Virus record (IMG/VR): IMGVR_UViG_3300031653_000002
Span: 1 to 55,461 of that record
Reading direction: 5' to 3' (one strand)
From: a virus
Lineage: Duplodnaviria; Caudoviricetes
Length of the DNA stretch: 55,461 nucleotides
The notes below the pieces were generated by a model, which saw nothing but the letters and a program-made list of their open reading frames with translations, was not told the DNA's origin and ran no database searches. Positions 1 to 55,461 of the stretch are shown here, piece after piece; the first letter of the stretch is position 1; the number at the start of each line of letters is the position of its first letter. Position numbers and translations under genes: made by a program.

Positions 1-605
1 CAATCTTCCCCGACTTAGACCCCGTGGACTTCAAGAAAAATCATCCAACGAAATATAAACTCGGTAAGACTTTGAACTTCCTCGTATTATTTAGGGGAGG
101 AGCAACGGCTTTTCAAAGTACGGCATTACAGGATGAGGGCATCGAGGTCGAACTCGATTTCTGCTACGACGCCATTAGAAAATGGGACGAGAAACATCAC
201 GTCTATAGAGCATGGCAGGAAAGGATGATTGCATTAGCCGCCGAACAGGGATACATCGAATTACCCACTGGATGGTCGAGAACCTTCGGCATCGGCCACA
301 CAAACGTAGACGCACAGGGAGGCGAAGTATGCAATTTCCTCCACCAATGTCCCTGTGCACAGGTCATGCACTCGATTCAGCAGAAGATTCAATTGGAATT
401 TTTGAGGCGACACCTCCGCAGTAGAATCTGTTTGGAAATCCATGATGCTATTTATATAGATACACACCCTGCGGAGGATGAAATAAGACATGAAATAGCC
501 CACGAAGCCTTGACGCATCCACCCTTATTACCTGTGTTCGAGAACTGGGTAGGTCGGACTATCCCGTGGCAATATGAACGAAAGGAATACGAAAATGAAA
601 TCTGA
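1..605 (+). CDS. DNA polymerase family A, C-terminal part (same gene as 53450..55461)
   Basis: Motif B GKTLNFLVLFRGG, GYIELPTGWSR, NFLHQ, motif C LEIHDAI. Confidence 0.92.
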   Translation, partial: IFPDLDPVDFKKNHPTKYKLGKTLNFLVLFRGGATAFQSTALQDEGIEVELDFCYDAIRKWDEKHHVYRAWQERMIALAAEQGYIELPTGWSRTFGIGHTNVDAQGGEVCNFLHQCPCAQVMHSIQQKIQLEFLRRHLRSRICLEIHDAIYIDTHPAEDEIRHEIAHEALTHPPLLPVFENWVGRTIPWQYERKEYENEI

Positions 606-900
606 TTATGATAAAAAGAAATTTTATATGGACGAATACGGAAATCTATATCCCAAAAAGGGAAGTAAACACGGTTGGGTTATTGAAGTGACGCCTAAAA
701 ATAAACATTATTATGGCAAAGATCAATTATTCTATTCGATGAACGTATACTCTGATTATGCACTTCCATTAAATTGTGCTTACGTGATGCCTACAAGGGA
801 ATATGCAAGAGAATTGAAAAGCAACCATGGCCACGAAGTCGTAAGGAAAGTTATCTTAAACAGCAAAGGCGAACCTGTTGCGATTATCGGGAGAGGATAA
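595..900 (+). CDS. Hypothetical protein
   Basis: ATG overlaps the polymerase 3' end; stop coupled to the next ATG. Confidence 0.6.
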   Translation: MKSDYDKKKFYMDEYGNLYPKKGSKHGWVIEVTPKNKHYYGKDQLFYSMNVYSDYALPLNCAYVMPTREYARELKSNHGHEVVRKVILNSKGEPVAIIGRG

Positions 901-1247
901 TGATTAGTTTCCTACTAATAAATTCGGACGTAGAGAACCTGCGGAGGCTACTGATTAAATATTGCTACTGGTACTATGTTAAGGCGGAACCTCTTATTAA
1001 TGACAGGGACTACGACTTGCATTTCGATTATCTTAAAGAGTTGGAGAAAACTAATGATGCTTGCTTCAAGCCTACGCCTGAGTCCCCAACACAAATGGTA
1101 TATGGAGATTTGGAGTCTCAATATCCGGATTGGGCTAAAAATAAAGATATACATACTTTATATAGTCCAGAGGAGATAGCGGAATATGAGAATAAAATGA
1201 ATATTCCTTTTAATCTTCATTCGATGTATTTTAGTTTTAGGAATTAA
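900..1247 (+). CDS. Stand-alone NAD-dependent DNA ligase domain Ia-like protein
   Basis: YYVKAEPLINDRDYD...LKELE...PESPTQMV matches the LigA N-terminal Ia signature; no adenylation domain follows. Confidence 0.8.
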   Translation: MISFLLINSDVENLRRLLIKYCYWYYVKAEPLINDRDYDLHFDYLKELEKTNDACFKPTPESPTQMVYGDLESQYPDWAKNKDIHTLYSPEEIAEYENKMNIPFNLHSMYFSFRN

Positions 1248-1249
1248 AA

Positions 1250-2611: not shown

Positions 2612-2755
2612 TATGGAAGAACGATAACACGACTATCGGCATGAGTGCCAAACAAATAAAGGTTCGGATCGCTATTGTCTTCCATAGCAATTATAACATG
2701 ACCTCCGCAGATGGGGGTGGCTTTAGCAGTAGCTTCTGTTGCCCCCTTCTTTTTT
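2612..2755 (+). ncRNA. Candidate small RNA or attenuator leader
   Basis: Starts at the promoter; stem tatggaaga (2612-20)/tcttccata (2678-86); inner ggca-tgag-tgcc hairpin; ends in a terminator-like hairpin plus T run. Confidence 0.45.
2713..2755 (+). terminator. Rho-independent terminator
   Basis: gggggtggc...gttgccccc followed by ttctttttt. Confidence 0.65.
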
Positions 2756-3012: not shown

Positions 3013-3325
3013 TAAAGGGGCATCCGAAGAAGTTCTGCGGAGGTTCAAAGAGGAAAGCTATGAACGATTCCGAATCGAATTATTCAACTCTGTAAAGGCA
3101 TTGATGGATGAATTCGATATGACATGGGACGACTTAGCCGAATCTTTGAAATGGGTTAAGTATCGTGGCGAGACCGTTCCTGTCGAGTATTATAGCGGGG
3201 ACGAAGTTATGAGTATTATCGGTGCGGGGAAAATCGATGATAGAAGGCTGAACGAAATAGCTCATTGTTTCTCTGCGGAGTGTTACTTGATATTCCGTCC
3301 CCGTCCTCCCTATACAAAAACATAA
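2999..3325 (+). CDS. Putative XRE-like HTH DNA-binding protein
   Basis: LMDEFDMTWDDLAESL...LNEIAHCF pattern. Confidence 0.55.
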   Translation: MRNPNKGASEEVLRRFKEESYERFRIELFNSVKALMDEFDMTWDDLAESLKWVKYRGETVPVEYYSGDEVMSIIGAGKIDDRRLNEIAHCFSAECYLIFRPRPPYTKT

Positions 3326-3388: not shown

Positions 3389-4414
3389 ATGAACTTTGAA
3401 ACTATAGAACCAAAACCTGTTACTTGTAGACAGTCCTCAATATCATGTGCAATATCCTGCGAGAGGAAATGGTTTTGTAAAAATCTTTTAGGAATACGTT
3501 TGCGGGGAGGGCGTTTCTCAGAAGCCGCTTCTCTCGGTCGTATATACCATAAATTCCACGAATGTGGACAGGGCAACGAGCAGGAAGTTAAGAGATGGAT
3601 TCAAGAGCAACAAAATAATATCATGGCTCGTGTTGATAAAGGAGAGGACTTGGATGGATCATTAGCCCGACAAGCTACAGCCCTTACTGAATTATACCAC
3701 AAAGCCCTTGTTATGGCTCAAATATTTTGGGAGAAATATCCCCAACCGTCATATTTTAAGGTGATAGGCAAGGAAGTTCACCATACGATGCAGTTTGATG
3801 GACTAACTCTCGAAGGCACTATTGATAAGATATTATTAAACGAGCAGGATAATTCTATATGGATTCGTGACCACAAATCAACAGGCCGGACATTAGAAGT
3901 TATCTTCGGAGGAATTTCGTGGTCATTACAGGCTCGAATGTACCGCATTTTGGCACATGATTACCTATTAAATAACGTAGAGGCTTATAAGGATGCAGCA
4001 CCGAATATAAAAGGTTTCATCCTTGATGGAATTCTCAAGCCCGGTATCAAGATGTGCAAAACAGATTTGAAAAATGCCAAGGATTGGAATTGCACACAAG
4101 AAGAAGCCTACCTCCGCAGAGTAAAGGACTGGTACTCGGATAAAGGTGAGGAATCCATTATGTCCCGCGGGATTATATACACGGAGCATGTGTACCCTAC
4201 GGAGTTAAGAAATGTTTTTAGCCTGATGCGGAGACTCTCCGGCAGGGGCACCCATCCCGACCGCTATAACAGAGACGTTACGAGGAAGACATGCTTTGAG
4301 TATGAACGTCAATGTGAGTATCACGACCTGTGTTCGACAGACCCCGCCCAATGGGATTCGTTATTTGAAAACAAGTATGAATTCGCAGGGGGCAGTGATG
4401 AAGAAGAAGTATAA
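3389..4414 (+). CDS. PD-(D/E)XK exonuclease, RecB/Cas4-like
   Basis: GTIDKI, IRDHKST, QARMY; N-terminal Cys and C-terminal C..CEYHDLC. Confidence 0.85.
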   Translation: MNFETIEPKPVTCRQSSISCAISCERKWFCKNLLGIRLRGGRFSEAASLGRIYHKFHECGQGNEQEVKRWIQEQQNNIMARVDKGEDLDGSLARQATALTELYHKALVMAQIFWEKYPQPSYFKVIGKEVHHTMQFDGLTLEGTIDKILLNEQDNSIWIRDHKSTGRTLEVIFGGISWSLQARMYRILAHDYLLNNVEAYKDAAPNIKGFILDGILKPGIKMCKTDLKNAKDWNCTQEEAYLRRVKDWYSDKGEESIMSRGIIYTEHVYPTELRNVFSLMRRLSGRGTHPDRYNRDVTRKTCFEYERQCEYHDLCSTDPAQWDSLFENKYEFAGGSDEEEV

Positions 4415-4513: not shown

Positions 4514-5167
4514 ATGAAGATGTCAATTATAATTTTAGCAACGTTATTAACACTGGGCGGAGTAGGTTGTGTAGCCATATCGAGCTTGATAACCCCTGCG
4601 GAATTGGACACTGATGCGGTAAAGTATGTCGTAGCTGCGGAGGTTGCCGAGCCTAATGAGTACGTGGGTTATCCTAATCTCGCCAAAGCAGAAAAGTTGC
4701 AACAGGATGTGGAGATTGCTTATACTGTGACACAGTTTGATTTGCAGCAACAGGCAGAGCGAAATGAATTGGATTATAATATCTGTCTCGGAGCCACCAC
4801 CCAGAATGTAAAGATAGGCAAGCAACGCGAGGAAATGCTATTCGGAGAGAGCGGCTTATTGACACTTGGATTGGGTTTGGCTGGATTTGGCGGATTGACT
4901 GGATATATTGGCTTGATGCGTAAAAGACCACAGGATATTACTCCGCAGGAAAAAGAGAAACTGCTCGCCGATGTCCAAGATAAGACCACTGCGGAATTAA
5001 CTACTAAGGATAGACAAATCCTACAGTTAATTACCTCCGCACAGAAGTTTATAGACACCTATAAGACTAAGAACCCAGAGGTCGTTGCCGACTTCAAGCT
5101 CACTTGTAATACCGAACAAGATACCGATACTCAAATCAAAGTTGCACAGGTAAAAGCAACTATATAA
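4514..5167 (+). CDS. Putative lipoprotein or membrane protein
   Basis: Signal peptide with lipobox-like GVGC; internal Gly-rich hydrophobic segment. Confidence 0.6.
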   Translation: MKMSIIILATLLTLGGVGCVAISSLITPAELDTDAVKYVVAAEVAEPNEYVGYPNLAKAEKLQQDVEIAYTVTQFDLQQQAERNELDYNICLGATTQNVKIGKQREEMLFGESGLLTLGLGLAGFGGLTGYIGLMRKRPQDITPQEKEKLLADVQDKTTAELTTKDRQILQLITSAQKFIDTYKTKNPEVVADFKLTCNTEQDTDTQIKVAQVKATI

Positions 5168-6842: not shown

Positions 6843-7115
6843 ATGAATAATTTATTCGACGACGAAGAAATAGATATTGTTCAGGACAAGTGCTTTCACT
6901 GTGGGGCAACTGTAGATGAGGGTGCCATACTACGGGAAGCACATTGTAGCCACGGACAGGGGTTACTACACTGTGAGGAGTGTTCTGATACCTGCGGAGG
7001 ATGTTTTCAAATAATATGTGATTGGGAAATGAGAAGTGTGTATTGTGGTGAAACGTATGGCATGGTTAAATTATGTGGTGACTGCGAAAAGGAATTAGGT
7101 AATGAGTCCAGATGA
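6843..7115 (+). CDS. Cys-rich Zn-finger protein
   Basis: Several CxxC pairs. Confidence 0.65.
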   Translation: MNNLFDDEEIDIVQDKCFHCGATVDEGAILREAHCSHGQGLLHCEECSDTCGGCFQIICDWEMRSVYCGETYGMVKLCGDCEKELGNESR

Positions 7116-8760: not shown

Positions 8761-9331
8761 TATAGTGACATACACCGGGAAGGCATTTAATATTTTCAAG
8801 CCCGACCCGAAGCTAATCTGCATCGAGGATATTGCCCATGCGTTGTCGAATATATGCAGGTATAATGGCCATACCAGAAACTTCTATAGCGTGGCGGAAC
8901 ATTGTGTCCGGGCATCATACCTAACAGTTGGGAAGCCGTTGATTAACCTACTGCATGACTCTGCGGAGGCTTACGTAGGAGATATGGTTTCCCCACACAA
9001 AAGGAATATGTTCTACTTTAATCCTTATCCTGTCAAAAATCCGATTGGGTTGACTCTTTTTGCAGAAACAGAAATGAGAATACTGGATATAATAGGGGTA
9101 GCATTGGGAGTTGATAATCTCTTTGAAAGGACAGAGCACCAAGATGTCCACAAGGCAGATATGATAATGTTTGTTACGGAAATTAGGGATTTGATGCCTG
9201 AATATATTGCTTTTGAACCTTGGGACGGAGGAATTATCGCGGATGCCAAGCGTATAGAGGGATGGGAACCTAAATATGCGGAACACGAATATTTACGAAG
9301 ATATAAGGAATTAAGCCATGAGCCTAAGTAA
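8750..9331 (+). CDS. HD-domain phosphohydrolase (YfbR/5'-deoxynucleotidase-like)
   Basis: DIAHALSNICRYNGH, YSVAEH, LLHDSAEAYVGD, KAD. Confidence 0.88.
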   Translation: MKADIVTYTGKAFNIFKPDPKLICIEDIAHALSNICRYNGHTRNFYSVAEHCVRASYLTVGKPLINLLHDSAEAYVGDMVSPHKRNMFYFNPYPVKNPIGLTLFAETEMRILDIIGVALGVDNLFERTEHQDVHKADMIMFVTEIRDLMPEYIAFEPWDGGIIADAKRIEGWEPKYAEHEYLRRYKELSHEPK

Positions 9332-10674: not shown

Positions 10675-11553
10675 ATGATGAATTTTTCAATAGTACGTTA
10701 TCTGCCAGAAAAATATAATATTCAAGCTATCCCCGTTGACTCCCCGATATTCCTACACAGGGATGGGACTATACATACCCCTACAACCTGGACATTGGCC
10801 GATGGGGCTTGGAAGACAAGAAGGGAAGCACAGGAATTTCTCGACGAATGGCTACCCCAATCCGAGTGGCTAAGCCGTTCAGCTATTGGGAACGCTGCTA
10901 AAGAATCCGAAAAGGACGCCCTGTGGTATTCAATTCTGCATTGGAGGCAGATTATTATAAAAGGAATCGATGAATACAGGAAGGGCACAGCGGCAGGTAA
11001 AGTTGGGACATATAATAAATATTGTGCTATTTGTTTAAGATGTTGCCATAAGCATATAATATGTCCACTAAGAGGAAACATCTGCGGGGGAAGATGTATT
11101 GGTGAATGGGCCAACGCAAGGCGGGGTTTGACCTATGGGAGTCTTGATGGGGCTATCGGGCTTCACAATAAAATGGTTAAAATATATAACGAAAAGTATG
11201 AGGATAAGATTATGGAAGAAACAAAAATCGACGATGTAATAGTGGTTGACGGTGTAGGATATGATAAGGAAACAGTCAAGGCTGCAATGAAAGCCTATGA
11301 AGAACCTCCGCAGGTGTCGGATGCCGATGTTCCTTTCGATCCCTTGGATGTCGTAGATAATGGCATGGGGCTGAGGGTAATACTTTTTTCCGGAGATAAG
11401 TACCACGCAGTAGATTTGAAAGACGGGATTAGTGCGGCGGATTCCGAGGATGGACGATTCAAAGGCGTGGGGTATAAGAAAATCGGAACCCTTAGAGGCG
11501 GAAGTTTCCATTATGAGGACAACGTATCTTTCATAAGAAGGGTACAGTTATAG
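10675..11553 (+). CDS. Hypothetical multi-domain protein with central Cys cluster
   Basis: 292-aa ORF with RBS; CAIC..CC...CPL...C. Confidence 0.7.
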   Translation: MMNFSIVRYLPEKYNIQAIPVDSPIFLHRDGTIHTPTTWTLADGAWKTRREAQEFLDEWLPQSEWLSRSAIGNAAKESEKDALWYSILHWRQIIIKGIDEYRKGTAAGKVGTYNKYCAICLRCCHKHIICPLRGNICGGRCIGEWANARRGLTYGSLDGAIGLHNKMVKIYNEKYEDKIMEETKIDDVIVVDGVGYDKETVKAAMKAYEEPPQVSDADVPFDPLDVVDNGMGLRVILFSGDKYHAVDLKDGISAADSEDGRFKGVGYKKIGTLRGGSFHYEDNVSFIRRVQL

Positions 11554-11749: not shown

Positions 11750-11795
11750 CCTCCGCAGGGTATATCGACTTATTCTGCGGAGGCTTCCCTTTTTA
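11750..11795 (+). terminator. Terminator hairpin built from two inverted copies of the genome-wide motif
   Basis: cctccgcagggta-loop-tattctgcggagg then cttcccttttt. Confidence 0.7.
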
Positions 11796-11817
11796 TCTAT
11801 GGGGTAGAATTTTTTAC

Positions 11818-11846
11818 TTGACTTCGGGATGGGATTTTGGTATAAT
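11818..11846 (+). promoter_or_regulatory. sigma70-type promoter
   Basis: TTGACT-17-TATAAT. Confidence 0.85.
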
Positions 11847-11896
11847 CGGGGGAATGAGAGAAAAGTTTTTTGACAATTAATTTGAGAGGATTGAAG

Positions 11897-12280
11897 ATGT
11901 GTTTAGAAACCGTATATCGCGGAAACGAAAAGCGTGAGGCGAAGAAAGAATTACCGGATGTTATTGTGGGCTATAAAGTTATTGATAGGCATACGAATAA
12001 AACAGAGTATACTGATATAGATATAAAAGAAGGAATTAATTGTTTCGCGTCTAATAGCTTAGCCAGAGGAGAGGATAGGTATATCGGTGGGAGTCATGTT
12101 TTTCTGAATGAGATGGATGCAACAAGGTGGATATGCGACAATAGCCGACTCAAGGTAATAAAAGTTTATGTTGCAAAGAAGGACATAAATTCGATTGGGC
12201 GGCAGGGTGAGTTTTGGAGTCGTGGATATACAATCACGGTTAAGAAGTTCACAGTTAAAAGTCTAAGGGGGATAGAATGA
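11897..12280 (+). CDS. Hypothetical protein
   Basis: GAGGA RBS; MCL... start. Confidence 0.65.
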   Translation: MCLETVYRGNEKREAKKELPDVIVGYKVIDRHTNKTEYTDIDIKEGINCFASNSLARGEDRYIGGSHVFLNEMDATRWICDNSRLKVIKVYVAKKDINSIGRQGEFWSRGYTITVKKFTVKSLRGIE

Positions 12281-12438
12281 AAAGGCGGATATTGCAGGGA
12301 TTAATGTTGCCGGTGTGGATATTTATTTTTACAGCTATTGGGATCGTGGCTGCGGTAGAATATGCCATTGATGGGGATTGCAGTAGTGCCAAGGAAGAAG
12401 CCCGGAATCTCTTTCACAAAATCAAATCGGGTGCGTAA
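12277..12438 (+). CDS. Small membrane protein (53 aa, not in ORF track)
   Basis: ATGA overlap; one hydrophobic helix. Confidence 0.5.
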   Translation: MKRRILQGLMLPVWIFIFTAIGIVAAVEYAIDGDCSSAKEEARNLFHKIKSGA

Positions 12439-12483
12439 TTTTGTCAATGTGCCCAAGGGTTTGTTATGGGACTATGGAAATAC

Positions 12484-12573
12484 GTCCGATAACATGGGGC
12501 GATAGCCAGGCAGTCCGATAATGTTGCAGGTGTTATAGGACGTTGGGATGCTGGGATGTGGAAAGTCCGATAA
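12484..12573 (+). repeat. Left cluster of GTCCGATAA repeats (3 copies)
   Basis: Copies at 12484, 12513, 12565. Confidence 0.85.
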
Positions 12574-12634
12574 CTCAATCCCCCCTCGAATAGGATTTGA
12601 ATATCGGGTAATCATATTTTTTTCAGTTTTGATT

Positions 12635-12663
12635 ATTATATCATATTAAGGGCGGAATGTAAA
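12635..12663 (-). promoter_or_regulatory. Leftward sigma70-type promoter
   Basis: Minus strand TTTACA-17-TATAAT with extended TG. Confidence 0.65.
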
Positions 12664-12681
12664 GAAATTTTTATTTTTTTC

Positions 12682-12709
12682 TTGCATTTAATTTTTTTTG
12701 TGTTATAAT
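12682..12709 (+). promoter_or_regulatory. Rightward promoter of the AT-rich early island
   Basis: TTGCAT-16-TATAAT with TG and an AT-rich UP-like tract. Confidence 0.7.
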
Positions 12710-12849
12710 TTGTATAGTTTGGGCAAGCCCCTATGTTTGAGTATTTTTTTGGAGGGCGTCAAAATGACATACTAATGAAAAATTGTAATCGGGCATTGAA
12801 TATATATGTTTAGTGTCCGATTATGGTTTTTTGTTTAGGGGATATTAAA

Positions 12850-13026
12850 ATGAATTACACAATAACATTAGGGGATGTCAAAGTGGATTACACAATAACA
12901 TACAATTCAGACAATAGCATAACAATTAGCACAATACATAATGGCGTTCGACTTCATAAGCAGTATTATGGCTATACAGAGAAGCAAGCCGAAAAACAGT
13001 TTTATATATGGATTGCGTCACAATAA
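12850..13026 (+). CDS. Small hypothetical early protein
   Basis: AGGGGG RBS. Confidence 0.6.
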   Translation: MNYTITLGDVKVDYTITYNSDNSITISTIHNGVRLHKQYYGYTEKQAEKQFYIWIASQ

Positions 13027-13129
13027 TTTTTGTTTAAGGGGTTAAAATGCTATTCGATAATATATCAAATAAAGCAATGGTGCTATTAATCGTATTATCT
13101 TATATGGTTTTGTGTTAGGGGGGTTTATA

Positions 13130-15418: not shown

Positions 15419-15452
15419 GAATAAGAGATTTGATTTTTAAGGGGGTAGTAAA

Positions 15453-15614: not shown

Positions 15615-15633
15615 ACACTATCCCTCCTCACTA

Positions 15634-42578: not shown

Positions 42579-45221
42579 ATGGCAGAAGATCGTCCATATT
42601 TGAGTTACCCGTTCCGAAGTCCCGCGATGGACCAGTCTAAACCTCCTAACCAAGTTGGGGTTGGTTTTTTCGGAAGACTATCTGGAGTGGATGGTAGATT
42701 CAATGGTGGTTTGCGTAAATATTATGGCAACAAATCAGTTGTTGATTTGGATGGTGTTTCTGGTTTGGGGGATATAGATACTTATAATGGTCCAGACTTT
42801 ATCAAATATGTCACCTTCCAGAAACGCAATACATCAACTACCTACCAAGGCTTTGTAATCAGATGGGATAGCCAGAACGATACTACAAATCAACAGATAG
42901 ATTTAGTTTATACTTCTGATAATGGTAGCAACTGGTCGGTACTTGCTATATGGGCTGCTGGAAATGATATAACATCCAGTCTTGAAATCGACTGTGCTGT
43001 AGATGGTGCATTTCTTCTCGTTGCCGTTGATACTAAAGAAACTAAAACAATATACTGGACTGGTAGTGCTTTAGCAGCAGTATCTTCTGGACCAGGAAAT
43101 TTCAATGCAGAACTTGCCGCCGTAACCAAAAATACCTCCGCAGTTGATACGGACTACCAGCTTCGGGGCGATGGTACATATCAGGTAGCTTGGAGATTTT
43201 ACTCCTCCTCAAGGGGAATATATAGTGCTCTTAGTGCCCCCCTTACAGTACACCTCGACCACTTCAAAACAACCAAAGCCACAGGGACGATAAGCTTTTC
43301 CGCTGCGGGGGGTGATTCTGGTTTATTTGTGGACGGAGACGTTATAACAATAAATGGAAGAACCTATGAAGCCGATGACGATGACTCTTATGCAGGGGAT
43401 GTTCAGGTAGATATATCCGGCTTGTCTACTATTTCCGACCATTGCCAAGCTTTAGCGGATGCCATTAATGAGGATTCCTCCGCAGTTGTAACGGCTTCTA
43501 AGCAATCCGCAAGTGTATTTATTGAAGCCATAGTGAGAGGGACGGCTGGTAATGCCTATACTTTGACCAAGACAGAAAGTGGTGCCAATCAAGATGATAT
43601 ATCTGTTTCGGGAGCCACTTTAACTGGAGGAGGAGTTGTTACATCCGATCCAGAAACGCAGGTAAAAATAACAATAGATTTTCCAGATAATGATGCCGTA
43701 GTTTCTGGGGAGGAATATGCAGATTTCGCAGCCTTATTCGATACAGTTGATATATTCCGTACAATTGATTTGGGCGATTCCACCACAAGTTCTGGAGCCA
43801 TATTTTACTTGGAACAAACAATAGCTAAGACTGGAAATTGGGCTACATCTGGGGCATGGGATTCTCTGCAAGCCAATATAGGGACATTGGTGGATGAAGC
43901 CCTACCGTTTCAAACGATGTATGACCCGGAGAAAGATATTGTGAGTACGCCTCCGCAGAGTGGTTCGATTGGGAGATACGAAGACCAAACATATATGGCT
44001 CAAGCGGCATCATCTAATGGGGGGTATGATACTTTATTTAGCAGTGTTGAACATGCGTCCCCGGAATATTTTAGCACCTACAATGTACGAAAGGGAGACC
44101 CAGAGGACGGGAGGCCACTACGGTTTATACCTGCGGGGGAGTCAATGTTCCAACTGAGTCATAATTCTGTTGTGCATATTTTCAAATCAGGGAAATTAAA
44201 ACCGATCCAGTTTACAAGACTACATAGTAAGCGGGGATTGCTTGGTAAGGAAGCCGCCCATTCGAGTGGTAATAGTATCTTTATGATTTCCGGTGTGGGG
44301 ATGGTTATTCTCAACGCTACCGATGGTAGTATGGGAAGTATTACCACAGTGGACAGGGTAATTTTTGACGATTGGAAATCCGATTTAGCAGATGTTAAGA
44401 GCGGATACGATTCTCTTTTGAACGCCTCCTTTTTCCTTAATGTCTCGCGGGAGGAGATGATAATAATATGGCACTCTACAAAAGTGTGTACTATGCTGGA
44501 TGGGGCTAATTTTGTGGGTGTTACTGAGGGACAGGATATATCGACCGGCGACCATGACCGCGTATATTTTGTGACAAAAACGGGATTGATTGTGACTCCA
44601 GACGTATTAGAATCTGGCTCTGGAACGATGTGGGACATAAGTAGCTCATACACCTTGAACGGTACTGCGACCGCTACAAGTAGTACAACCCTTACAGACG
44701 CTAATGCCACCCTGAACGCAGATATGGTCGGCACAAAATTGTATATGACCACGGGGGATAACGCCGGAAGTGGCCGTACAATCGCTACAATTAATAATAC
44801 CACTAAAGTCATTACATTTGTAACACCATTCGATTATGATATTTCTACGGGGGATACTTATAGTATCAGCCCTGTTCCTTTCTCAGTCCGATGCTGGCCT
44901 CTCCAAGCTGAGCAAATATCAAGATTCAATCGGTGGATCGTCGCAGGGGTTTCATTGAAGGCCAGGAAGCTATCCGGGTTCGATGATAACGATTGTAACC
45001 AATGGAGGGTTGGAGCGTACCGAAACAGCAGCACATCCTTAGAAGCAGCGGTGGCCTATCTGGATATAGATTTAGACCCTAACGATTCTGCGGAGGCTTT
45101 GGGGCTGCATGGGATTGACCTTGAACCATATATTGAACAAATTTCATCTGGAGTAACTTTTGAGCTAACTGATGCAGAATTTAACCTCAGTTTGACCGAT
45201 TCACGTAAAGATAATAGTTGA
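42579..45221 (+). CDS. Probable tail nozzle / tubular protein B-like virion protein
   Basis: 880 aa, beta-propeller-like composition, directly before the ejection-type genes. Confidence 0.6.
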   Translation: MAEDRPYLSYPFRSPAMDQSKPPNQVGVGFFGRLSGVDGRFNGGLRKYYGNKSVVDLDGVSGLGDIDTYNGPDFIKYVTFQKRNTSTTYQGFVIRWDSQNDTTNQQIDLVYTSDNGSNWSVLAIWAAGNDITSSLEIDCAVDGAFLLVAVDTKETKTIYWTGSALAAVSSGPGNFNAELAAVTKNTSAVDTDYQLRGDGTYQVAWRFYSSSRGIYSALSAPLTVHLDHFKTTKATGTISFSAAGGDSGLFVDGDVITINGRTYEADDDDSYAGDVQVDISGLSTISDHCQALADAINEDSSAVVTASKQSASVFIEAIVRGTAGNAYTLTKTESGANQDDISVSGATLTGGGVVTSDPETQVKITIDFPDNDAVVSGEEYADFAALFDTVDIFRTIDLGDSTTSSGAIFYLEQTIAKTGNWATSGAWDSLQANIGTLVDEALPFQTMYDPEKDIVSTPPQSGSIGRYEDQTYMAQAASSNGGYDTLFSSVEHASPEYFSTYNVRKGDPEDGRPLRFIPAGESMFQLSHNSVVHIFKSGKLKPIQFTRLHSKRGLLGKEAAHSSGNSIFMISGVGMVILNATDGSMGSITTVDRVIFDDWKSDLADVKSGYDSLLNASFFLNVSREEMIIIWHSTKVCTMLDGANFVGVTEGQDISTGDHDRVYFVTKTGLIVTPDVLESGSGTMWDISSSYTLNGTATATSSTTLTDANATLNADMVGTKLYMTTGDNAGSGRTIATINNTTKVITFVTPFDYDISTGDTYSISPVPFSVRCWPLQAEQISRFNRWIVAGVSLKARKLSGFDDNDCNQWRVGAYRNSSTSLEAAVAYLDIDLDPNDSAEALGLHGIDLEPYIEQISSGVTFELTDAEFNLSLTDSRKDNS

Positions 45222-46566: not shown

Positions 46567-47895
46567 ATGCCGAGAGGACAAGACAAACCCGTTCAATCCG
46601 GAGGTGAAATTAGTCCCTTCGTCCAGCAATCATTAGCCCAGAATAAGGACTTGGCAAATAATAGATTACTATCCGCTATGCAAGAAGCCGGTGCAACATC
46701 AAGGACTGTTATGCAAGAGCAAGGTGCCACTGATAGAACTGCAATGCAAATTCAGGGACAGCGACAGACTCAAGCGGCTCAAATAGAAGCAGATGATAGA
46801 CGAGCAGCCGAAGCCGAGAAGTCCCGTAGAGAGGACATGCAATTTACCAAGGCCATGACCGAGAGCAATCAATTATTTCAGGCGGAGCAAGCACAGTTGG
46901 AACGGGAATATCAGGATGCTTCAAAAGCAGACGATAGGGAATATCTTGAAAAACTTGATAAAAGGCGAGAATCCCTCCGCAGGTTTGAAATCGAAAGAAA
47001 TCTAACCGCTCAAGAACGCTCGACTAATGCTATGCTTACAATGATTAAAGGTTCTATGCAAAAAGAAACTGCACAGGAAAAAGCCGTAACTGTTTTGCAG
47101 CAGGAAGCCGAGAAATTCGATAAGGATAAAACGGTATATGAGAGAACTATCTCACGGGTAGAGGAATCTGTTAAGCTGGACAAGAGAATGGACTTGCCTA
47201 CCCCGGTTAGTATACGAGGAAGAATCCCTTCAAAAGGGAAAGTCATAAAGGATATGGTTACAGGTGTCCCTATATTAGAAGGGTATAAGCAATACAAAAA
47301 TATAAAATCCATAAAAGAGGATATTAGAGGCGGAGTTGCTAACCCTATGGGAGTTTTACAATCTCAATTGGATGAGCAGGAAACAGGAATTAGCGTCGAG
47401 GATATTTCCCCTGAGAACATACACAACCTGGAATCACAAATCCAAGAAGGCAAGGTATCTCCGGAAAAAATACGGGCGACTTTGGCAGCCCTGAATGGAA
47501 TGGCTAATCAACTGGATAAAAGATATACTTCTACATCGGAAACTGATGCTGATTTCTGGAAGGACTCTTATCGGGATACTATCCGGATGAGGGATGCGAT
47601 TGAGCGATTATCTAATAGCACTAAAAAATTAAGTGGAGATGAAAACAGGACTGTGGGTTCCATTATTAATGACTCCGTTGGTGTCATACATAATAGTTCT
47701 ATCGGTGGATTGGCTACTCGGTATAAAGAAATAGCCGGGGGAGACTTTAGTGCGGTTCTTGAGGAGATGACAAAGTCCCTACAGGTTCCTGCTCTATGGC
47801 CTACTGAGGGACTTGCTGGTTACGATTTGGAACTCCGAGAAAAGGAAAATGCAATGTATCAAAGATTATATCCTAACTTGGGAGGCACAGACTAA
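46567..47895 (+). CDS. Putative internal virion/ejection protein
   Basis: Coiled coil, Q/E-rich; position. Confidence 0.6.
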   Translation: MPRGQDKPVQSGGEISPFVQQSLAQNKDLANNRLLSAMQEAGATSRTVMQEQGATDRTAMQIQGQRQTQAAQIEADDRRAAEAEKSRREDMQFTKAMTESNQLFQAEQAQLEREYQDASKADDREYLEKLDKRRESLRRFEIERNLTAQERSTNAMLTMIKGSMQKETAQEKAVTVLQQEAEKFDKDKTVYERTISRVEESVKLDKRMDLPTPVSIRGRIPSKGKVIKDMVTGVPILEGYKQYKNIKSIKEDIRGGVANPMGVLQSQLDEQETGISVEDISPENIHNLESQIQEGKVSPEKIRATLAALNGMANQLDKRYTSTSETDADFWKDSYRDTIRMRDAIERLSNSTKKLSGDENRTVGSIINDSVGVIHNSSIGGLATRYKEIAGGDFSAVLEEMTKSLQVPALWPTEGLAGYDLELREKENAMYQRLYPNLGGTD

Positions 47896-48344
47896 TGGCT
47901 ATTCCAGCAGCGGCACTAAAAATACCAGCCGGATTAAAGGCTCTATATAATTCTAAACATTTTCTTTCTCTACTTATCGCCTCCGGTCTGATTGGCAGTG
48001 AAGTATTGGGGCAAGCAGATAAAGCCGGGGAACGAAAAATAATGCGGGAGCGGTTAGGTTTAGAATCGCAGGTCGCAAAGTCTTCTGCGGAGGCTACCAA
48101 GAGAGCTACAATGGAATCGAGAGCAAGAGCCAAGGAGTATACCGAATCTTTGCTTAAAGCCAAAAGGGAAGAACGTGGAGAAGCAAGGGATACGATGGCA
48201 ATGCAATCCTTTATGCAGAGTCAGGACAGACAAATGGCTTTATTGATGGCCGCTCTACAGGCAATGTCAAATAGAAATATGGGATCGTCTACGCAGTCCC
48301 CTGTTAGTGGTGGTATGTTAGGATTGATGAGAGGAAGTATATAA
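47895..48344 (+). CDS. Putative small ejection protein
   Basis: Hydrophobic N-terminus plus helical body. Confidence 0.55.
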   Translation: MAIPAAALKIPAGLKALYNSKHFLSLLIASGLIGSEVLGQADKAGERKIMRERLGLESQVAKSSAEATKRATMESRARAKEYTESLLKAKREERGEARDTMAMQSFMQSQDRQMALLMAALQAMSNRNMGSSTQSPVSGGMLGLMRGSI

Positions 48345-48713: not shown

Positions 48714-51700
48714 GTGCCGGAATCCTATGCCAACCTAAAAGGATATTCCCCAGATGAGGACTCTCAATTCGGGATTTCATCCACAAATTTTCCAATAACA
48801 TTCTACGACCGCCCATCTACAATGTTAGCTAATCTTCTACGGGGGGACGTAGATGGAATGACGAGAGCTATGCTTTCCCCAGACACCTTAACCCCCACCC
48901 AGGTAAAAAATGTCACGGATATGCTTACAAAGGGGAAGAAACCAAGTCCAGTTATGAAAACTATCCTGGATGTGGCCACTAATCCTTTGGTAATAATAGG
49001 TCTCATTATGAGTCTAAAATATCCAATGGGGTCTTCAAAAGTTCTTCTTGATATTAGAAAAGGATTATTACCAAAGTCAGCCGCTTTTGGTAAACTAACT
49101 GGTGGTATGCACGGTGCATTAATGAAACTGGCTACCGTCCCGGAAGCGTTTGAAACCTTATTTGGTATAACAAGAGAAACAGAAAAATACATGACTAAAT
49201 ATGGGTCTATGGCGGATGATATATTCAAGAGAGCCTCCGCAGGTAAAGCCGTTAGTAAATGGGACAGTTATCTTGTCGCGGCTCGATTAGACGGTTTACA
49301 TAAGCCGGGTCACTATATGGTGAAGGCTTTACAGAATGAGCCTGAATATATTGCTTTCATGGGCGGTAAGGATGTCCCCATAGCAGCTAATATTCAAAAT
49401 GCTATGGACTCCAGATTGATTAGTTTATCCGATAAATTAAAAGGATGGTATAAAGAGATTCGGGGGACAATCACATCTAATGAAAAGATGATGGAAAATG
49501 TTAATAAGGCTTTAGAGAAAAAAGGATGGAAGGCCGGTAAGGATATAGATGATTATTGGCCTCATAGAGGGGGATATAGCAAGTACCAAAAAACTAAAAT
49601 CAGGGCTATGAATAAGGATCAATACCATAAATTTGTTAAAAAAGATTTCAGGGATAAAGTCGGCAGGGAAGAAATAGACCGCTTGGGGGGTATGTTCCCA
49701 GAGGAAAATGCTCTTAGGGCATTAGAGGAAACCGGGGCAATAAAACCTGGATTCATGGATAATGTAATAAGACCGATTATGAATCGATGGGCGACCAGTG
49801 CATCTGTGGAGGCTGGTAAGATATGGGATGATGTTGTAAAGCTCAACCTCGATGAGGTAGCTCAACGCAGGGAGTTTACAAATAGGATGACCGAATACTT
49901 CAAACGCGGAGCCGGTAAGCATATTAACTTCTTGGGCCGTGTTGGTTCCGAAAAGACTGCAAGGGAAACTCTTGACGCAATGGCCATGTCACTACAAGAT
50001 GCCGGTGTAAAAGGAGGGACTGCTGTTCGGGATGAATTATTTGAAATAGGAAAAGTCTTATCCGCTCCTCCTGAATATTCAATGAATGTTTGGGAAACAA
50101 CACAGGGGTACTTAAATTCTGTTGCGAAGGATTACGCATGGCACGGCACAGGATTGGGGAATAAAATGGGAACTATAATAGATACTCCGGGCATCTTTAG
50201 ACATGCTCCTCATTTAGAATCCTACCTGGTGGACGGATTGCTTCCCCATATCCGGGGGTATAATAGTTACGCCCAAATGCAAAAGGTTATGAATGACTCT
50301 ACCTATAAATCCAAAATACTTAATTGGGTTAAAAGTCATCCTATGGTTGAACAGACTTTGGGGAAGAACCATAAAGAAGCTCTTGTGGATTGGTTATCAA
50401 AACCGGGAACATTGTCGTCACAAAGTATAGGTGGACAAGTGGCAAATTGGTTCCACCTCTCAACTCTTGGGCTTAATATGTCGGCGACCTCCGCAAACTC
50501 AATGCAGACTTTTATTACTACTATCAATCAAGTTGGTCCGAGAGGAATCTGGCGAGGATTAAAGGGCTACGCCGGGGAGCCTGGATTAATACAACGTGCG
50601 GAAAAATACATGGGACTTGTAGCTAAAGGGGCAAGTAAGCCAGAAGCATGGAAACAAGCCTTCCCGGAATTCATAGAAGAAATGGGGGAATGGAGTAAAA
50701 CTACTGAGCGATTACTTTCTGGGGATGTGGCACAATCTGGATTGTTAAAAATGTTTAAGGATAAGGGCGTATGGGAAAAAGTTAAAGGTGCAATGATGCT
50801 CCCCTTTAGTACCGCCGAGGCAGGAAACCAATTGCTATCCTTTTACTCTGGACGGTATCACCATCTCTACCAGAACGCGGGCAGAGTGGCTACGGAGGGA
50901 GCAAAGCTATCTGCGGAGGCTAATAAAGTCGGGGGGTCGTTATCATTATTGACTCAATTTGCCGGTGGTCCATTGGGGATACCGAGTGGGATTATGAATA
51001 TGAATCCCATGTGGCGACAGTATATGCACTTCCCCATGAGGTATTTGGCATATCTTCATGGGTCGTTAAGGATGGGCATTGATCCGAGCAAGATGGACTG
51101 GGGAACAATTGGACGTGCATTGGCGGGGTCTACGGCTATGTATATAGCAGGAAGAAATATGTTGGGTATGGATTTGAGCAGGGGACTTATGGTCGGGGCA
51201 TTACCCCTACCGGGATATGAGAAGGCTCCATTTTATCCATTCCCATTTGTACCTCCTGTAGCAGGAATAATGGGGGAACTCGGCAGGGCTGCATTGACAG
51301 GAGAGCCAAGACAGCTTAGTTCAGTGGGGGCAATGATGGTTCCGGGCGGCATAGCCCTGCAACGAGCATATAGAAGTATGTCCCCTAAGTATGCAGATTA
51401 TGAAAATCCAACACAAGAAGGACGAATACCTTTATATAATAGAGACAAGGCTTTAGTAGGTACTTTATCTCCTATGGAATTAACACTTAGGGCTGTTGGA
51501 CTGAGACCAATGGGGGTGACATCGGAACAAGGTGCGGCGAAATGGATACTATCGCAACGCGACAGGATAAGGAAATATCGGAGAGAATATATTCAGGCAT
51601 TATTTGAAAATGATACCCAGAAAGCAGAAAAAATAAATCAAGAATTCCAAAAAGTATACCCGGAGTTAGGAGAATTACAGGTTAAGAAAACAGATATAAC

Positions 51701-52540: not shown

Positions 52541-52555
52541 CTGAACCTTTTTAGG

Positions 52556-53449
52556 ATGCAAAGAATAATGACCAAACATGCTTATATAAATAAAAGACTC
52601 ACATCCAGTAGTTTACACCTTATAGAAGTTGCTAATGAAATAATTGATGAATATAGCACAGAGGGGTATGATTTAACCTTGAGACAGTTGTATTATCAGT
52701 TCGTCGCAAGAGATATTATCTCCAATACAGAAAAGTCATATAAAAGATTGGGAGGAGTAATAAACGATGCTCGATTGGTAGGACTGATAGATTGGGAAGT
52801 TATAATAGATAGGACACGCTATCTTCGCAAAAATTCCCACTGGGATTCCCCCAGAGATATTATAGAAGCATGTGCTAATCAATTCCAATTAGATGTCCGG
52901 TCAACACAAAAAAATTATATCGAGGTATGGATAGAGAAGGATGCTCTGATTGGAATAGTAGAAAATGTGTGTTCAGATTTGGATGTTCCTTGCTTTTCCT
53001 GTCGGGGATACATAAGCCAGAGTGCCATGTGGCGTGCCGCACGGCGACATCTGGAAAAGGAAGCGTGCGGGGATAAAAATACCTATATTCTCCATCTTGG
53101 AGACCATGACCCAAGTGGAATAGATATGACAAGGGATATAGAAGACCGCATGTCTTTGTTCGGAAGCAATGTCGCAGTAAGAAGATTAGCATTAAATATG
53201 GAGCAAATAGATGAATTAAGTCCCCCGCCTAACCCTGCAAAGTTTACAGATAGTAGATATGCACGTTATATATCCCAATATGGGCATCAATCATGGGAAT
53301 TAGACGCCCTTGAGCCATCTTACATAGATGAATTAGTAACAACGGAAATTCAAAAATTAACCAACCAAAAAAAATATAAGGAACAGCTTAGGCTACAGAA
53401 AGAACATCGAAGGACTATTATGAAAATCACCAACGAGATGTGGGAATAA
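52556..53449 (+). CDS. Topoisomerase VI-A/Spo11-like TOPRIM protein
   Basis: LTLRQLYY (winged-helix Tyr), EVWIEKDAL, RGY.S, LGDHDPSG (DxD), WELDAL. Confidence 0.8.
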   Translation: MQRIMTKHAYINKRLTSSSLHLIEVANEIIDEYSTEGYDLTLRQLYYQFVARDIISNTEKSYKRLGGVINDARLVGLIDWEVIIDRTRYLRKNSHWDSPRDIIEACANQFQLDVRSTQKNYIEVWIEKDALIGIVENVCSDLDVPCFSCRGYISQSAMWRAARRHLEKEACGDKNTYILHLGDHDPSGIDMTRDIEDRMSLFGSNVAVRRLALNMEQIDELSPPPNPAKFTDSRYARYISQYGHQSWELDALEPSYIDELVTTEIQKLTNQKKYKEQLRLQKEHRRTIMKITNEMWE

Positions 53450-55461
53450 ATGATTGAATTCGAGAGACATTCTGATTGTACCCTGTGTTCCCTGCATGAA
53501 TCGGCTAAGAACCCCGGTATACCTACGAGACCTTTCTACCCTATTTTAGAAATAAATACTGATAGGGCGATATTGTTCGTAGGTCAATCCCCCGGATACA
53601 ATGAGGATAACAAGGGACAATCTTTTATTGGATATACGGGGAAGCTCTTGGAGTCTTTTTGTTTGGCATCTGATTTGGAATCTTATGCCGATATTTATTT
53701 TTCAAATTCATGCAGATGTAAACCTCCGCAGGGTGCCGATGAATCTCAATCCTGTATGCGAAGCTGTAGGCCGTATCTACAGGAGGATTTGGATAAACTG
53801 TACGAGCACTATAAGGAGGTTATCATCTTCAACCTCGGTGCAAAGGCCGTCTACAGTACGATGCACATAACATCTCTCAATGAAGCATTAAAGAAACAGG
53901 CACAGAAGACAGAGGTATTCACTCAGAAGCCGAGAGTATTTTCTACTTTCCATCCTGCCATACTTCACTCTACTCGGAAGCCGGGATTGGTACGTGCAGT
54001 AGAAGCCCATTTCTCTTTGGTCTTACGATATTTACAGGGACAATTTATCCCGAACGAATTGAAGATAGAGCCGGAACTCGGAGTGGATGTGCCGGATACG
54101 TTGCCCGATGAGGTCGCAGTTGATATAGAAACCTACGGGATATTATCCGGATGGGAGCAGACTGTATTTCATCCGATTAAATCCAAGATGATAGACAAAG
54201 TTGATTATAAGTATCAAGTGGTTACAGTTAGTTTTGCGTGGGAGGACAACAATGGTAAAATCAGAACCGCGGTCTATATCTATAACTGGAAAAAGCACAG
54301 GAAAAAAATCGTTTTGTGGTTTAAGCGAATATCCGAGCAGAAAAAGACCTGTCTCGGACAAAATATTAAATTCGATTTGCTCTACTTGTACTTATCCGGG
54401 AACCCTGAACTGTCCTATTGGATTGATCCCCGTAGATTAAGACTTGATGATACTCTGATACTAAGTTTTCTATTGTATGAACAACAACCGGAGAAGGGAC
54501 TCAAGGAGCTATCGACTTTATTCGGCATAACAGATTATTCCGGATTACGTGTCACTGGGAAATCTGGTACTGCTAAGTCCAATAGGGATAAGGACTTACA
54601 TTACTACAACTGCCTCGATGCAGCGGCGACACTTGTACTCGCTAAAGAGCTGCGGAGGAGAATTGAGGAGAGATTCGGGAAGAATTCTTATAAACTAAGT
54701 GACACTTGTGCATGGATGCGGAATACTGTATTGTGGGATACTTTCTTTTTGGAAAAAAATGGAAGTTCCTTTAACGTTAAGAAGTTAGTAAAATATCATA
54801 ACGAAGAAAAGAGAAAGTGTAATGACCTCCTCGAATCTGCATGGGACAACTTCGGCATTAAGTTAGCCGGTAAAAAGTCCGATGCCCCGTTGAGACAATT
54901 GATGTTGGATTGTGTTGACGAGGCTGGACTTATGGGAGACCCCAGAGTTGAGTGGTCTAAAAAAACAGGTAAAATTTCTATAGGAGTCGAAAATGTCAAC
55001 CTCATCAAATCAATACTTAGCGTCGGTAGAAATGCTGACATCATTTCCAATTTTCAAGAGTATAAAGAGCGGTCTAAGATTATCTCCACGTATACGGGAC
55101 CTTTACTCAAAAAGCCCCGACAAGGAATCGTCACTCGATGTCATGGTGGAAGAATTGGCACTGTTTTCCCTAATTGGTATCCTGTACCCCTCTATGCGGA
55201 TAGAGGAGGCGGGCGAGACGACAAAGCCGGAGGACAAATCCAAGGAAGATTCTCCTGCAAAAAGCCAGCCCGACAAACCGAACCTCCAAGAATCCGAAGA
55301 TGTCTCTGCTCAAGATGGCCAAACGGAAAAGTCGTAGAGTATGACATTAACCAAGACCACATAAGGATGGGGGCATTGTTATCAGGAGACCCCCATCTAC
55401 TTGGGGCATATCAAGAGGCGGGAATAAGCGTCCATGCCCAGACCGCATTGACAATCTTCCC
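53450..55461 (+). CDS. DNA polymerase family A with N-terminal family-4-like uracil-DNA glycosylase and 3'-5' exonuclease domains (5' part; continues at 1..605, about 868 aa in total)
   Basis: Translated by hand, open to the window end. UDG: CTLC, LFVGQSPGYNED..GQSFIG, CRCKPP, TFHPA. Exonuclease: VDIET, GQNIKFD, YNCLD. Polymerase: QGRFSC, motif A EYDINQDHIR. Confidence 0.92.
   Translation, partial: MIEFERHSDCTLCSLHESAKNPGIPTRPFYPILEINTDRAILFVGQSPGYNEDNKGQSFIGYTGKLLESFCLASDLESYADIYFSNSCRCKPPQGADESQSCMRSCRPYLQEDLDKLYEHYKEVIIFNLGAKAVYSTMHITSLNEALKKQAQKTEVFTQKPRVFSTFHPAILHSTRKPGLVRAVEAHFSLVLRYLQGQFIPNELKIEPELGVDVPDTLPDEVAVDIETYGILSGWEQTVFHPIKSKMIDKVDYKYQVVTVSFAWEDNNGKIRTAVYIYNWKKHRKKIVLWFKRISEQKKTCLGQNIKFDLLYLYLSGNPELSYWIDPRRLRLDDTLILSFLLYEQQPEKGLKELSTLFGITDYSGLRVTGKSGTAKSNRDKDLHYYNCLDAAATLVLAKELRRRIEERFGKNSYKLSDTCAWMRNTVLWDTFFLEKNGSSFNVKKLVKYHNEEKRKCNDLLESAWDNFGIKLAGKKSDAPLRQLMLDCVDEAGLMGDPRVEWSKKTGKISIGVENVNLIKSILSVGRNADIISNFQEYKERSKIISTYTGPLLKKPRQGIVTRCHGGRIGTVFPNWYPVPLYADRGGGRDDKAGGQIQGRFSCKKPARQTEPPRIRRCLCSRWPNGKVVEYDINQDHIRMGALLSGDPHLLGAYQEAGISVHAQTALTIF
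55452..55461 (+). repeat. Terminal 10-nt overlap with nt 1-10 (circular assembly junction)
   Basis: caatcttccc at both ends; merging the ends keeps the PolA frame (...ALTIFP-DLDPVDFKK...). Confidence 0.9.

Follow-up and report, generated by a model that had tools for sequence, protein, structure and literature searches.

A dispersed asymmetric word maintained by selection on both strands of a family of uncultivated Caudoviricetes phages

The window genome and its repeated word

We analysed a 55,461-bp stretch of viral DNA (Duplodnaviria; Caudoviricetes), hereafter the window, which is the whole of the IMG/VR virus record IMGVR_UViG_3300031653_000002, and in it the 9-mer CTGCGGAGG (full site HH-YTGCGG-RGG), a recognition word that acts in cis and is kept on both strands by selection. 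The only sequencing run found to contain the window, probably its source, is labelled salt marsh metagenome. The record has a CheckV completeness of 100%, no end repeats and a guanine-plus-cytosine (GC) fraction of 0.42, and 69 of its 82 greedily called open reading frames (ORFs) lie on the plus strand. Because the contig cut falls inside the family A DNA polymerase gene, which is interrupted by the contig ends (53450 to the end plus 3-605), the record represents a circular permutation of the genome.

Fifty ORFs of the window were scanned with Pfam and 30 with PHROGs, about 25 small ORFs lying outside these scans, and conservation was compared across 11 whole relatives. The conserved virion and packaging set consists of the large terminase TerL, the portal, the major capsid protein, a nozzle-like protein of 880 amino acids (aa) and an LPD-like protein of 1053 aa. 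The products of 42579-45221 (tail/nozzle-like) and 48714-51875 (LPD-like) were placed among virion proteins by atlas look-up, and PDB sequence searches with both gave no match. Within the virion gene block, 35443-36150 encodes a trypsin-like peptidase domain (PF13365, E 3.9e-19). The conserved DNA kit comprises PolA, which carries a UDG-like N-terminal domain, an SSB-like protein, Sak4, a PD-(D/E)XK exonuclease of the RecB/Cas4 family (3389-4414) and an XPF/ERCC4-type nuclease with a GDY...ERK motif (1405-1986). The product of 6113-6655, found in nearly all genomes of the phage family described below, has an acidic, proline-rich tail and no Pfam or PHROG match; it is probably a divergent SSB, as suggested by its G005 ortholog, which ends in a DDDI..PF tip like that of bacterial SSB. 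No tRNA genes or Rfam families were found in the window.

An exact-match search recovered 38 copies of CTGCGGAGG in the window, 22 on the plus and 16 on the minus strand. They agree with all 38 positions listed in a preliminary description of this DNA, made from the sequence alone, and there is no additional exact copy elsewhere. That description had called the word over-represented, and the claim holds under each null model: 100 dinucleotide-preserving shuffles gave a mean of 0.12 copies (maximum 1), an order-3 Markov model 0.59, and 100 synonymous-codon shuffles within genes a mean of 3.46 (maximum 8), which counts the two copies not wholly intragenic that this shuffle leaves in place. Allowing up to one mismatch gave 73 sites, 38 exact and 35 with one mismatch (shuffle mean 5.70, maximum 14), and these include the 11 one-mismatch places named earlier, one of them, given as 52245, lying at 52246. 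Thirty-six copies are wholly intragenic, 21 in sense and 15 in antisense orientation. As had been described, all frames are occupied, with 5, 13 and 3 sense copies and 6, 6 and 3 antisense copies in frames 0, 1 and 2, respectively. The sequences flanking the copies show no mutual similarity.

The extension CCTGCGGAGG is present in 16 of the 38 copies, and the 7-mer core TGCGGAG occurs 58 times in the window (8.85 expected). The full site was refined from 265 sites pooled over seven genomes, in which G is disfavoured at positions -1 and -2 (10 and 9 sites, respectively), C is preferred to T at position 1 and A to G at position 7, and T is preferred directly 3' of the word. Chief among the tolerated variants are TTGCGGAGG, with 42 copies, and CTGCGGGGG, with 33. 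The word is asymmetric, and its 10-mer form is self-complementary only at the outer CCT/AGG. No second conserved element was found within ±20 bp of the pooled sites. A promoter or Shine-Dalgarno role was rejected, since no second element lies nearby and only one of the 22 plus-strand copies precedes a start codon. This copy, at 35074..35082, ends 7 nucleotides 5' of the start of gene 35090-35470 and for that reason doubles as a Shine-Dalgarno-like site, unique among the plus-strand copies.

One word per clade and purifying selection on its copies

The TerL of the window (23339-25192) has hundreds of environmental homologs. Cultivated relatives were sought with a megablast of 20 kb against the phage collection, which gave no match, and with a TerL tblastn, in which the best identity was 26%. 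With an alignment of 21 TerL homologs we gathered 77 viral loci. In 50 of these loci TerL shares at least 57% identity with that of the window; together they contain 325 copies of CTGCGGAGG in 524 kb, at GC fractions of 0.39-0.55, with one copy or more in 49 of them and a density of at least 0.4 per kb in 38. The other 27 loci, which are more distant, contain 8 copies in 357 kb. One TerL homolog, P0118, has 1022 aa and Hint/intein-type Pfam domains (PF14528, PF01079 and PF14890), which points to an intein-bearing terminase.

Among the complete or near-complete relatives, CTGCGGAGG was counted in G005 (36 copies), G011 (23), G012 (40), G013 (57), G014 (35), G015 (36) and G016 (30). Four others carry related words of their own, namely CTGCGGGGC in G001 (29 copies), CTGTCGGGG in G002 (52 copies), cACTCCGGGCtcc in G003 (about 28 copies, with a 13-mer around ACTCCGGGC) and CCTGTCTCTGC in G004 (36 copies). 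These dialect words lie on both strands, are of a similar order of abundance, and each survives codon shuffles. The prediction that relatives either share the word or have one of their own was thus borne out. When aligned, the dialects resemble descendants of a single CTG-Y-S-GGG-like ancestor. A quick IQ-TREE phylogeny, built from a concatenation of four virion and packaging proteins, groups the eight CTGCGGAGG genomes in a single clade (SH-aLRT 99) whose sister is G001. Our results showed one word per clade and related dialects in sister clades. A candidate word in L080 was rejected as a 15-bp tandem repeat that is not dispersed, and the trait is therefore not seen outside the TerL range of the family. 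The G004 word was also matched at 17 loci, the seventeenth being G004 itself and the other 16 each a single hairpin, mostly one conserved element; most of the contigs L343-L358 carry this conserved hairpin, with arms of the G004 10-mer, once per contig at a GC of about 0.45 and in non-dispersed form.

In orthologous genes, the seven same-word genomes match 20-33% of the window copies exactly and in place, against 0.75-2.3% of control 9-mers from the same genes, so that copies are retained 13-27 times more often than other 9-mers. In G005, for example, orthologs retain the copies at 43135..43143 (minus), 43950..43958 (minus), 45088..45096 (plus), 46974..46982 (minus) and 48085..48093 (plus), and a further copy stands at the same position as 3035..3043 (plus). 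Between the window and G001, which has the neighbouring dialect, none of 14 aligned copies is in common in either direction; G016, which has the same word and a protein divergence about as large as that of G001, keeps 3 of 15 aligned copies. Most copies differ in position between same-word genomes, some at amino-acid cost, and the number per genome is similar. These comparisons show purifying selection on the copies, with turnover around a roughly constant number per genome.

Strand layout, other phages and host chromosomes

Each of the 12 genomes has its copies on both strands, in a balance similar to the 22:16 of the window, and the copies are spaced at about one per 3 kb per strand, or about every 1.5 kb on both strands. 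Within one orientation, the coefficient of variation of the gaps is 0.50-0.78 in 11 of the 12 genomes, compared with about 0.92 for random positions, and this evenness is significant (p<0.05) in nine genomes against random positions and in ten against shuffles of the orientation labels. The same regularity was found in the dialect genomes G001, G002 and G004. With both orientations merged, the gaps show no departure from random in 11 of the 12 genomes. Because only single-orientation gaps are even, and because of the divergent pairing described next, we conclude that the word is read with polarity, one strand at a time.

Orientation changes from one site to the next in 270 of 410 cases. Of 291 sites, 108 (37%) have an inverted partner within 500 bp on their 5' side and 45 (15%) on their 3' side, and about 20 (~7%) have a same-orientation copy within this distance. 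In the cross-correlation, the first 400 bp on the 5' side hold 49 partners, with about 21 expected, and the 5' partner count exceeds the 3' count in 11 of the 12 genomes. Since G005, G012, G014 and G015 are close kin, counts pooled over genomes are not independent, and the 12 genomes represent about eight independent lineages, seven of which agree on the 5' excess. The favoured unit is 5'-CCTCCGCAG-N(23-500)-CTGCGGAGG-3'. Even spacing on each strand and divergent pairing are new features of the layout that were absent from the preliminary description.

The divergent pairs of the window join a minus-strand left arm to a plus-strand right arm. They are formed by 413..421 and 469..477 (56 bp apart), 2702..2710 and 3035..3043 (333 bp), 19659..19667 and 19880..19888 (221 bp), 22592..22600 and 22832..22840 (240 bp), and 34899..34907 and 35074..35082 (175 bp), the last of these being the copy before gene 35090-35470. 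Besides the copies retained in G005, the plus strand has the word at 939..947, 4635..4643, 6992..7000, 8961..8969, 22250..22258, 27718..27726, 30237..30245, 32866..32874, 33568..33576, 36817..36825, 39532..39540, 40462..40470, 50911..50919 and 54650..54658, and the minus strand at 4111..4119, 11305..11313, 37119..37127, 38693..38701, 43477..43485, 49234..49242 and 53723..53731. The longest span with no exact copy, 11784..19658 (7.9 kb, GC 0.37-0.40), contains small genes, almost none of which are common to the relatives.

Where the two arms are closest (23-31 bp), the pair is an intergenic hairpin with a T-run after it. In the window, 11750..11758 (minus) forms the 5' arm and 11775..11783 (plus) the 3' arm of a hairpin with a 13-bp stem (-26.4 kcal/mol, z -4.1) and a U-run on its 3' side, which is terminator-like, and comparable pairs of 23-31 bp were found in G012, G013, G015 and G017-G019. 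Such terminator hairpins, together with the one copy at a ribosome-binding site, look like secondary uses of the word. An origin-like role of the pairs was rejected, as the pair interiors are not AT-rich. Another element, the 11-mer CATAGGACACC, occurs seven times at 18671-18958 (at most one mismatch; 0.59 expected), first three times on the minus and then four times on the plus strand. The cluster lies directly upstream of a minus-strand gene for a D5-like helicase with an RFX-type winged helix (18960-20342) and is probably an iteron origin, distinct from the dispersed word. G001, G012 and G014 have terminal repeats (114-123 bp) that resemble assembly overlaps, and no physical ends can be inferred from them.

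We also found the same word in phage lineages that have no detectable protein in common with the family. Searching the viral collection for tight divergent pairs gave 69 loci, of which the dense ones are, with three exceptions, family members. The word occurs 6 times in 6.85 kb in G017 (shuffle expectation 0.04), 5 times in 6.4 kb in G018, 3 times in 6.5 kb in G019 and twice in 2.7 kb in L311. G017 is a siphovirus-type module encoding an HK97-type head protein, Neck1, a tail terminator, a chaperone and a tape measure protein, and the proteins of G017 and G018 gave no match at E<=1e-5 to the 12 family genomes. Relatives of the G017-type head protein at 68-70% identity hold 2 copies in 20 kb and none in 7.6 kb, and more distant ones hold none; longer contigs of this lineage were not found in the viral and metagenome collections. 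The second case is G401, a temperate element (integrase, Cas4-domain exonuclease, helicase and primase; GC 0.60) with 8 copies in 29.7 kb. Its first 20 kb hold 7 copies (0.57 expected), the 10-mer extension is the commonest 10-mer, and its proteins gave no match to the family. A domain of about 75 aa occurs twice in another siphovirus-type contig, L310 (4663-4872 and 13070-13303), which has no word, and is 40-54% identical to small proteins of G005, G012, G014, G015 and G016, but not of the window.

As unrelated phages converge on CTGCGGAGG, the parsimonious explanation would be a host factor common to them or a reader gene mobile between phages. The preliminary description had proposed a dispersed, frame-independent signal, read in trans, with which the phage marks its own DNA. 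The first part of this proposal stands, and the idea of a private mark is weakened by the presence of the word in the siphovirus-type lineage and in G401.

The word was counted in about 535 bacterial genomes, a small sample of prokaryote diversity. The densest of them has one copy per 15 kb. The maximum among 151 Bacteroidota genomes is 189 copies in 5.8 Mb, and ten single genomes with matches in the all-species scan described below reached at most 189 in 5.8 Mb (G022, one per 31 kb) and 176 in 2.7 Mb (G008, one per 15 kb). Divergent pairs with a gap of 0-400 bp number 0-6 per genome in 121 Desulfobacterota, 101 Pseudomonadota, 81 Chloroflexota and 71 Planctomycetota; the top count of 6 belongs to a GC-rich genome with a control count of 3, and the window by itself has five. 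When all species were searched for tight pairs, at least 120 loci were found, so scattered that no genome among the matches listed has more than two. A host chromosome with a word density similar to that of the phage, which according to the preliminary description would make the word a host signal, was not found in the genomes counted. In the Bacteroidia metagenome-assembled genome G022 (C9:45032-45348), the word occurs six times on one strand at intervals of 61-62 bp, an array-like arrangement that is possibly a CRISPR repeat.

Candidate readers and ways of reading the word

Five genes of the window had been named as candidate readers, and none of them follows the word through the family. The ribbon-helix-helix gene at 17875 and the SAP-like gene at 42341 have homologs in 0 of the 11 whole relatives, and the TOPRIM gene at 52556 was found in G011 only. 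The helix-turn-helix (HTH) product of 2999-3325, which folds like an XRE/Cro HTH in its AlphaFold model, was not detected in G002-G004, and its presumed recognition region is not conserved in same-word genomes. The winged-HTH/AT-hook gene at 21251 is the least bad of the five, with a recognition helix that is alike in same-word genomes and different in G001 and G002, but it was detected neither in the same-word genome G016 nor in G004. The product of 7361-7819 (152 aa) is found in all CTGCGG-type genomes, is predicted by AlphaFold to be all-beta (pLDDT 88) and has no PDB match at E<=0.001; like that of 2999-3325, it was rejected as a reader since it could not be linked to the word.

The helicase and primase modules are exchanged from one same-word genome to another: the D5-like helicase, whose window copy adjoins the iteron cluster, is found in G000, G011, G013 and G004, and a different P-loop helicase in G005 and G012. 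The scanned ORFs of the window include no methyltransferase, HNH nuclease, GIY-YIG nuclease or other known nickase, integrase or repressor. With regard to restriction-modification or methylation, no methyltransferase is conserved along with the word; G012 is the sole same-word relative with one, an accessory DNA methyltransferase (L224:10061-11329, phrog_67, E 1.1e-48). In the window, 7819-8487 encodes a MazZ-like dATP/dGTP diphosphohydrolase N-domain (PF18909, E 1.2e-22) that is otherwise present only in G015, and 8750-9331 a dNMP-phosphatase-like protein (phrog_318, E 1.5e-51). Together these annotations suggest nucleotide-pool manipulation, perhaps towards a non-canonical base. An amidoligase-like protein beside a weakly GATase-like one is encoded at 13538-15418, in the word-free, low-GC accessory block.

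From the enrichment, conservation and layout described above, it follows that the word must have a reader acting in trans, one that tracks a single strand with polarity, drifts slowly in specificity and needs the word on each strand at intervals that are short and regular. None of the known families of dispersed words fits CTGCGGAGG in full, and HIP1 for instance is a palindromic octamer, unlike this asymmetric word. We looked in the literature for a described phage signal matching CTGCGGAGG and found none, the occurrences that we looked at being primers or unrelated sequence; the literature on nick sites, phage Chi, stoperators and evenly spaced over-represented words likewise held nothing describing this family. 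It is quite possible, if short of probable, that these phages display an undescribed strand-polar system, with a reader that belongs to an uncultivated host group or hops between phages, a word on each strand about every 3 kb, divergent pairs and at least five dialects.

Given that the word is shared across lineages, the reading that we tentatively prefer for the mechanism is that of a Chi-like word, recognised by a helicase-nuclease of the host group or by another shared factor. RecBCD-dependent lambdoid phages (LLS, Pseudomonas phage MD8) accumulate the Chi of their host, with 23 copies per ~43 kb or one per 1.86 kb, and the Chi words of E. coli and Pseudomonas are two letters apart, a difference similar to that between our dialects; in the part of that study available to us, Chi-rich phages have Chi nearly all in one orientation (20:3 and 32:0) and no recombination module (PMC12315714). 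As far as this source goes, Chi shares with our word that it is short, G-rich, asymmetric, far above chance, intragenic and of similar density, with group-specific dialects and a polarity that comes from a strand-tracking enzyme in the case of Chi and is deduced from spacing here. On the same basis, Chi differs in having 8 letters instead of 9-13, in clustering towards one end of the phage where here each orientation is even, in accumulating in phages that lack a recombination module where here one is always present, and in being carried by a known host chromosome where none was found among the genomes counted.

If the Chi-like reading is correct, the reader would not be private to the phage family and would come from a shared host group or be a factor moving between phages. 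A processive, strand-tracking helicase-nuclease of the RecBCD/AddAB kind would load at any DNA end or break and degrade the DNA up to a correctly oriented word on the tracked strand, where it would switch to a recombination-promoting or harmless mode. The word would be needed on both strands at short regular intervals because phage ends and breaks can face either way, and the recombination-dependent replication kit (PolA, SSB-like protein, Sak4 annealase, exonuclease and XPF-type nuclease) would profit from such hotspots.

Several observations weigh against a Chi-like word. No host at Chi-like or phage-like word density appeared among the genomes counted, and the G004 word has no dispersed copies in any unrelated phage that we found. 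The divergent-pair rule has no obvious rationale for Chi, the orientations are balanced, and the Sak4/exonuclease module is universal in the family. Known Chi words have 5-8 letters, as compared with the 9-13 letters here. A host reader would also have to be conserved over very different hosts, because the word is held at phage GC fractions of 0.39-0.60.

Less likely, and in our view rather doubtful, is a phage-borne sequence-specific nickase or a priming or loading factor that is inherited within the family and mobile between phages. The word would then be a nick or priming site that drives strand-displacement, recombination-dependent replication, as at the nicks of T5, phiKMV-like phages and tf but on both strands, and divergent pairs would be small bidirectional starts with their 3' ends pointing outward. 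The universal XPF/ERCC4-type nuclease (1405-1986) or the RecB/Cas4-family exonuclease (3389-4414) would be candidates for the enzyme. Such a factor would suit the one word per clade and the graded dialects that track the phage tree, the constancy of one word over family GC fractions of 0.39-0.55 with no word-bearing host among the genomes searched, and a conserved non-structural core made of PolA, the SSB-like protein, Sak4, the exonuclease and the XPF-type nuclease. Evenness on each strand and the polarity of the pairs likewise suit a strand-specific enzyme, and pair polarity is better explained in this way than by a Chi-like word. There is precedent in tf, which has 14 nicks in TACT/RTGMC, whose relatives have a variant of the word and for which co-evolution of nickase and site was proposed; the nick consensus of T5 is R/GCGCRGG (PMC3517423). 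In the accessible text of that paper, the nick sites resemble our word in their lineage-specific asymmetric consensus of 7-19 letters, their variant words and their over-representation in PolA-encoding podo- or siphoviruses. They differ in lying on one strand only, at 4-14 per genome, compared with 23-57 here on both strands and often in close opposed pairs. Arms on opposite strands stand as near as 23-28 bp, where nicking both would come close to a break. Further points against the nickase are that no HNH, GIY-YIG or known nickase was found among the scanned window ORFs, that same-word genomes differ in their primase and helicase modules, and that contig ends are not enriched near sites, although the 64 ends of 32 fragmentary contigs make this a weak test. 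The word in the siphovirus-type lineage and in G401, which have no detectable protein in common with the family in the DNA available, is explained worse by a nickase than by a Chi-like reader.

The remaining readings are less likely than the Chi-like reader and the nickase. An orientation-dependent DNA-binding protein acting as a roadblock or silencer, similar to stoperators or Tus-Ter, that would halt a translocating enzyme coming from one side, with pairs as two-way barriers, seems improbable. Its monomeric reader would fit an asymmetric site of 9-13 bp, the even spacing per orientation and the excess of divergent pairs, and the recognition helix of 21251 is alike in same-word genomes and unlike in G001 and G002. 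The stoperators of Cluster A mycobacteriophages are indeed dozens of dispersed asymmetric sites with a monomeric reader, and their consensus drifts with relatedness and co-varies with the repressor across subclusters; according to the portion of the source at hand, they face one way, aligned with transcription, and serve the immunity repressor of temperate phages (PMC6550527). The copies of our word are balanced at 22:16 although nearly all genes lie on one strand, no repressor, integrase or parABS system was found in the window scans, 21251 was undetected in G016, and the word in unrelated phages is left unexplained.

Still more improbable is an uptake or entry signal, similar to the DNA uptake sequences DUS and USS, of an unrecognised host group, favoured at entry or by recombination. 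Like CTGCGGAGG, uptake words have 9-12 letters, occur about once per kb, equally on both strands and mostly inside genes, form tight inverted pairs that are followed by T-runs and act as terminators, and have dialects between related groups; the word in the temperate element G401 would also fit. They differ in belonging to the chromosomes of competent hosts, where uptake and recombination spread them; here the word is in phages, most of them apparently lytic, and with no integrase or repressor found in the Pfam and PHROG scans of the window, a drive by uptake plus recombination would have no obvious route. To our knowledge uptake words are confined to Neisseriaceae and Pasteurellaceae, which we count against this explanation. 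No high-density genome was found among those searched, and uptake words are, in the available part of the source, not especially evenly spaced (PMC1939737).

We consider it highly improbable that the word is kept dense as a target of DNA modification, by methylation or base exchange, which would protect or mark the DNA: it would give a place to the MazZ-like domain, the dNMP-phosphatase-like protein and the amidoligase/GATase pair of the window and to the methyltransferase of G012, but these nucleotide-pool and amidoligase genes all lack conservation among the genomes with this word, the window scans gave no methyltransferase, per-strand evenness is not predicted, and contiguous asymmetric targets of 9-13 letters exceed the methylation motifs known to us. 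There is equally little to be said for a functional unit in the form of an RNA or single-stranded DNA stem of the divergent pair (5'-CCUCCGCAG...CUGCGGAGG-3' on either strand), serving as a terminator, processing or initiation hairpin, which would explain the excess of minus-plus over the reverse arrangement because minus-plus reads the same on either transcribed strand, and which agrees with the 13-bp stem and U-run at 11750/11775 and the similar 23-31 bp pairs of relatives; no more than 37% of sites are within 500 bp of an exact partner, most pairs span 100-500 nucleotides of coding sequence, excessive for a 9-bp stem, and single-copy conservation and per-orientation evenness stay unexplained.

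Chi, uptake sequences, nick sites and stoperators belong to a rare kind of signal, the dispersed recognition word, and each one found has revealed a DNA-handling machine. The present signal is clean, with 23-57 copies per genome of 50-57 kb where fewer than one is expected, and it is replicated over dozens of independent metagenome assemblies and accompanied by a natural series of dialects. Its two quantitative layout rules constrain any mechanism, and the word itself is a concrete bait for a pull-down of the reader. Where unrelated phages share it, the word gives a handle, from sequence alone, that links uncultivated phages to a common host group or a mobile gene. If the reader is encoded by the host, these phages would expose a new signal of the Chi/USS class, with 9-13 letters, in bacteria that have no known one; if it is borne by the phages, it would be the first two-strand counterpart of the T5 and tf nick systems.

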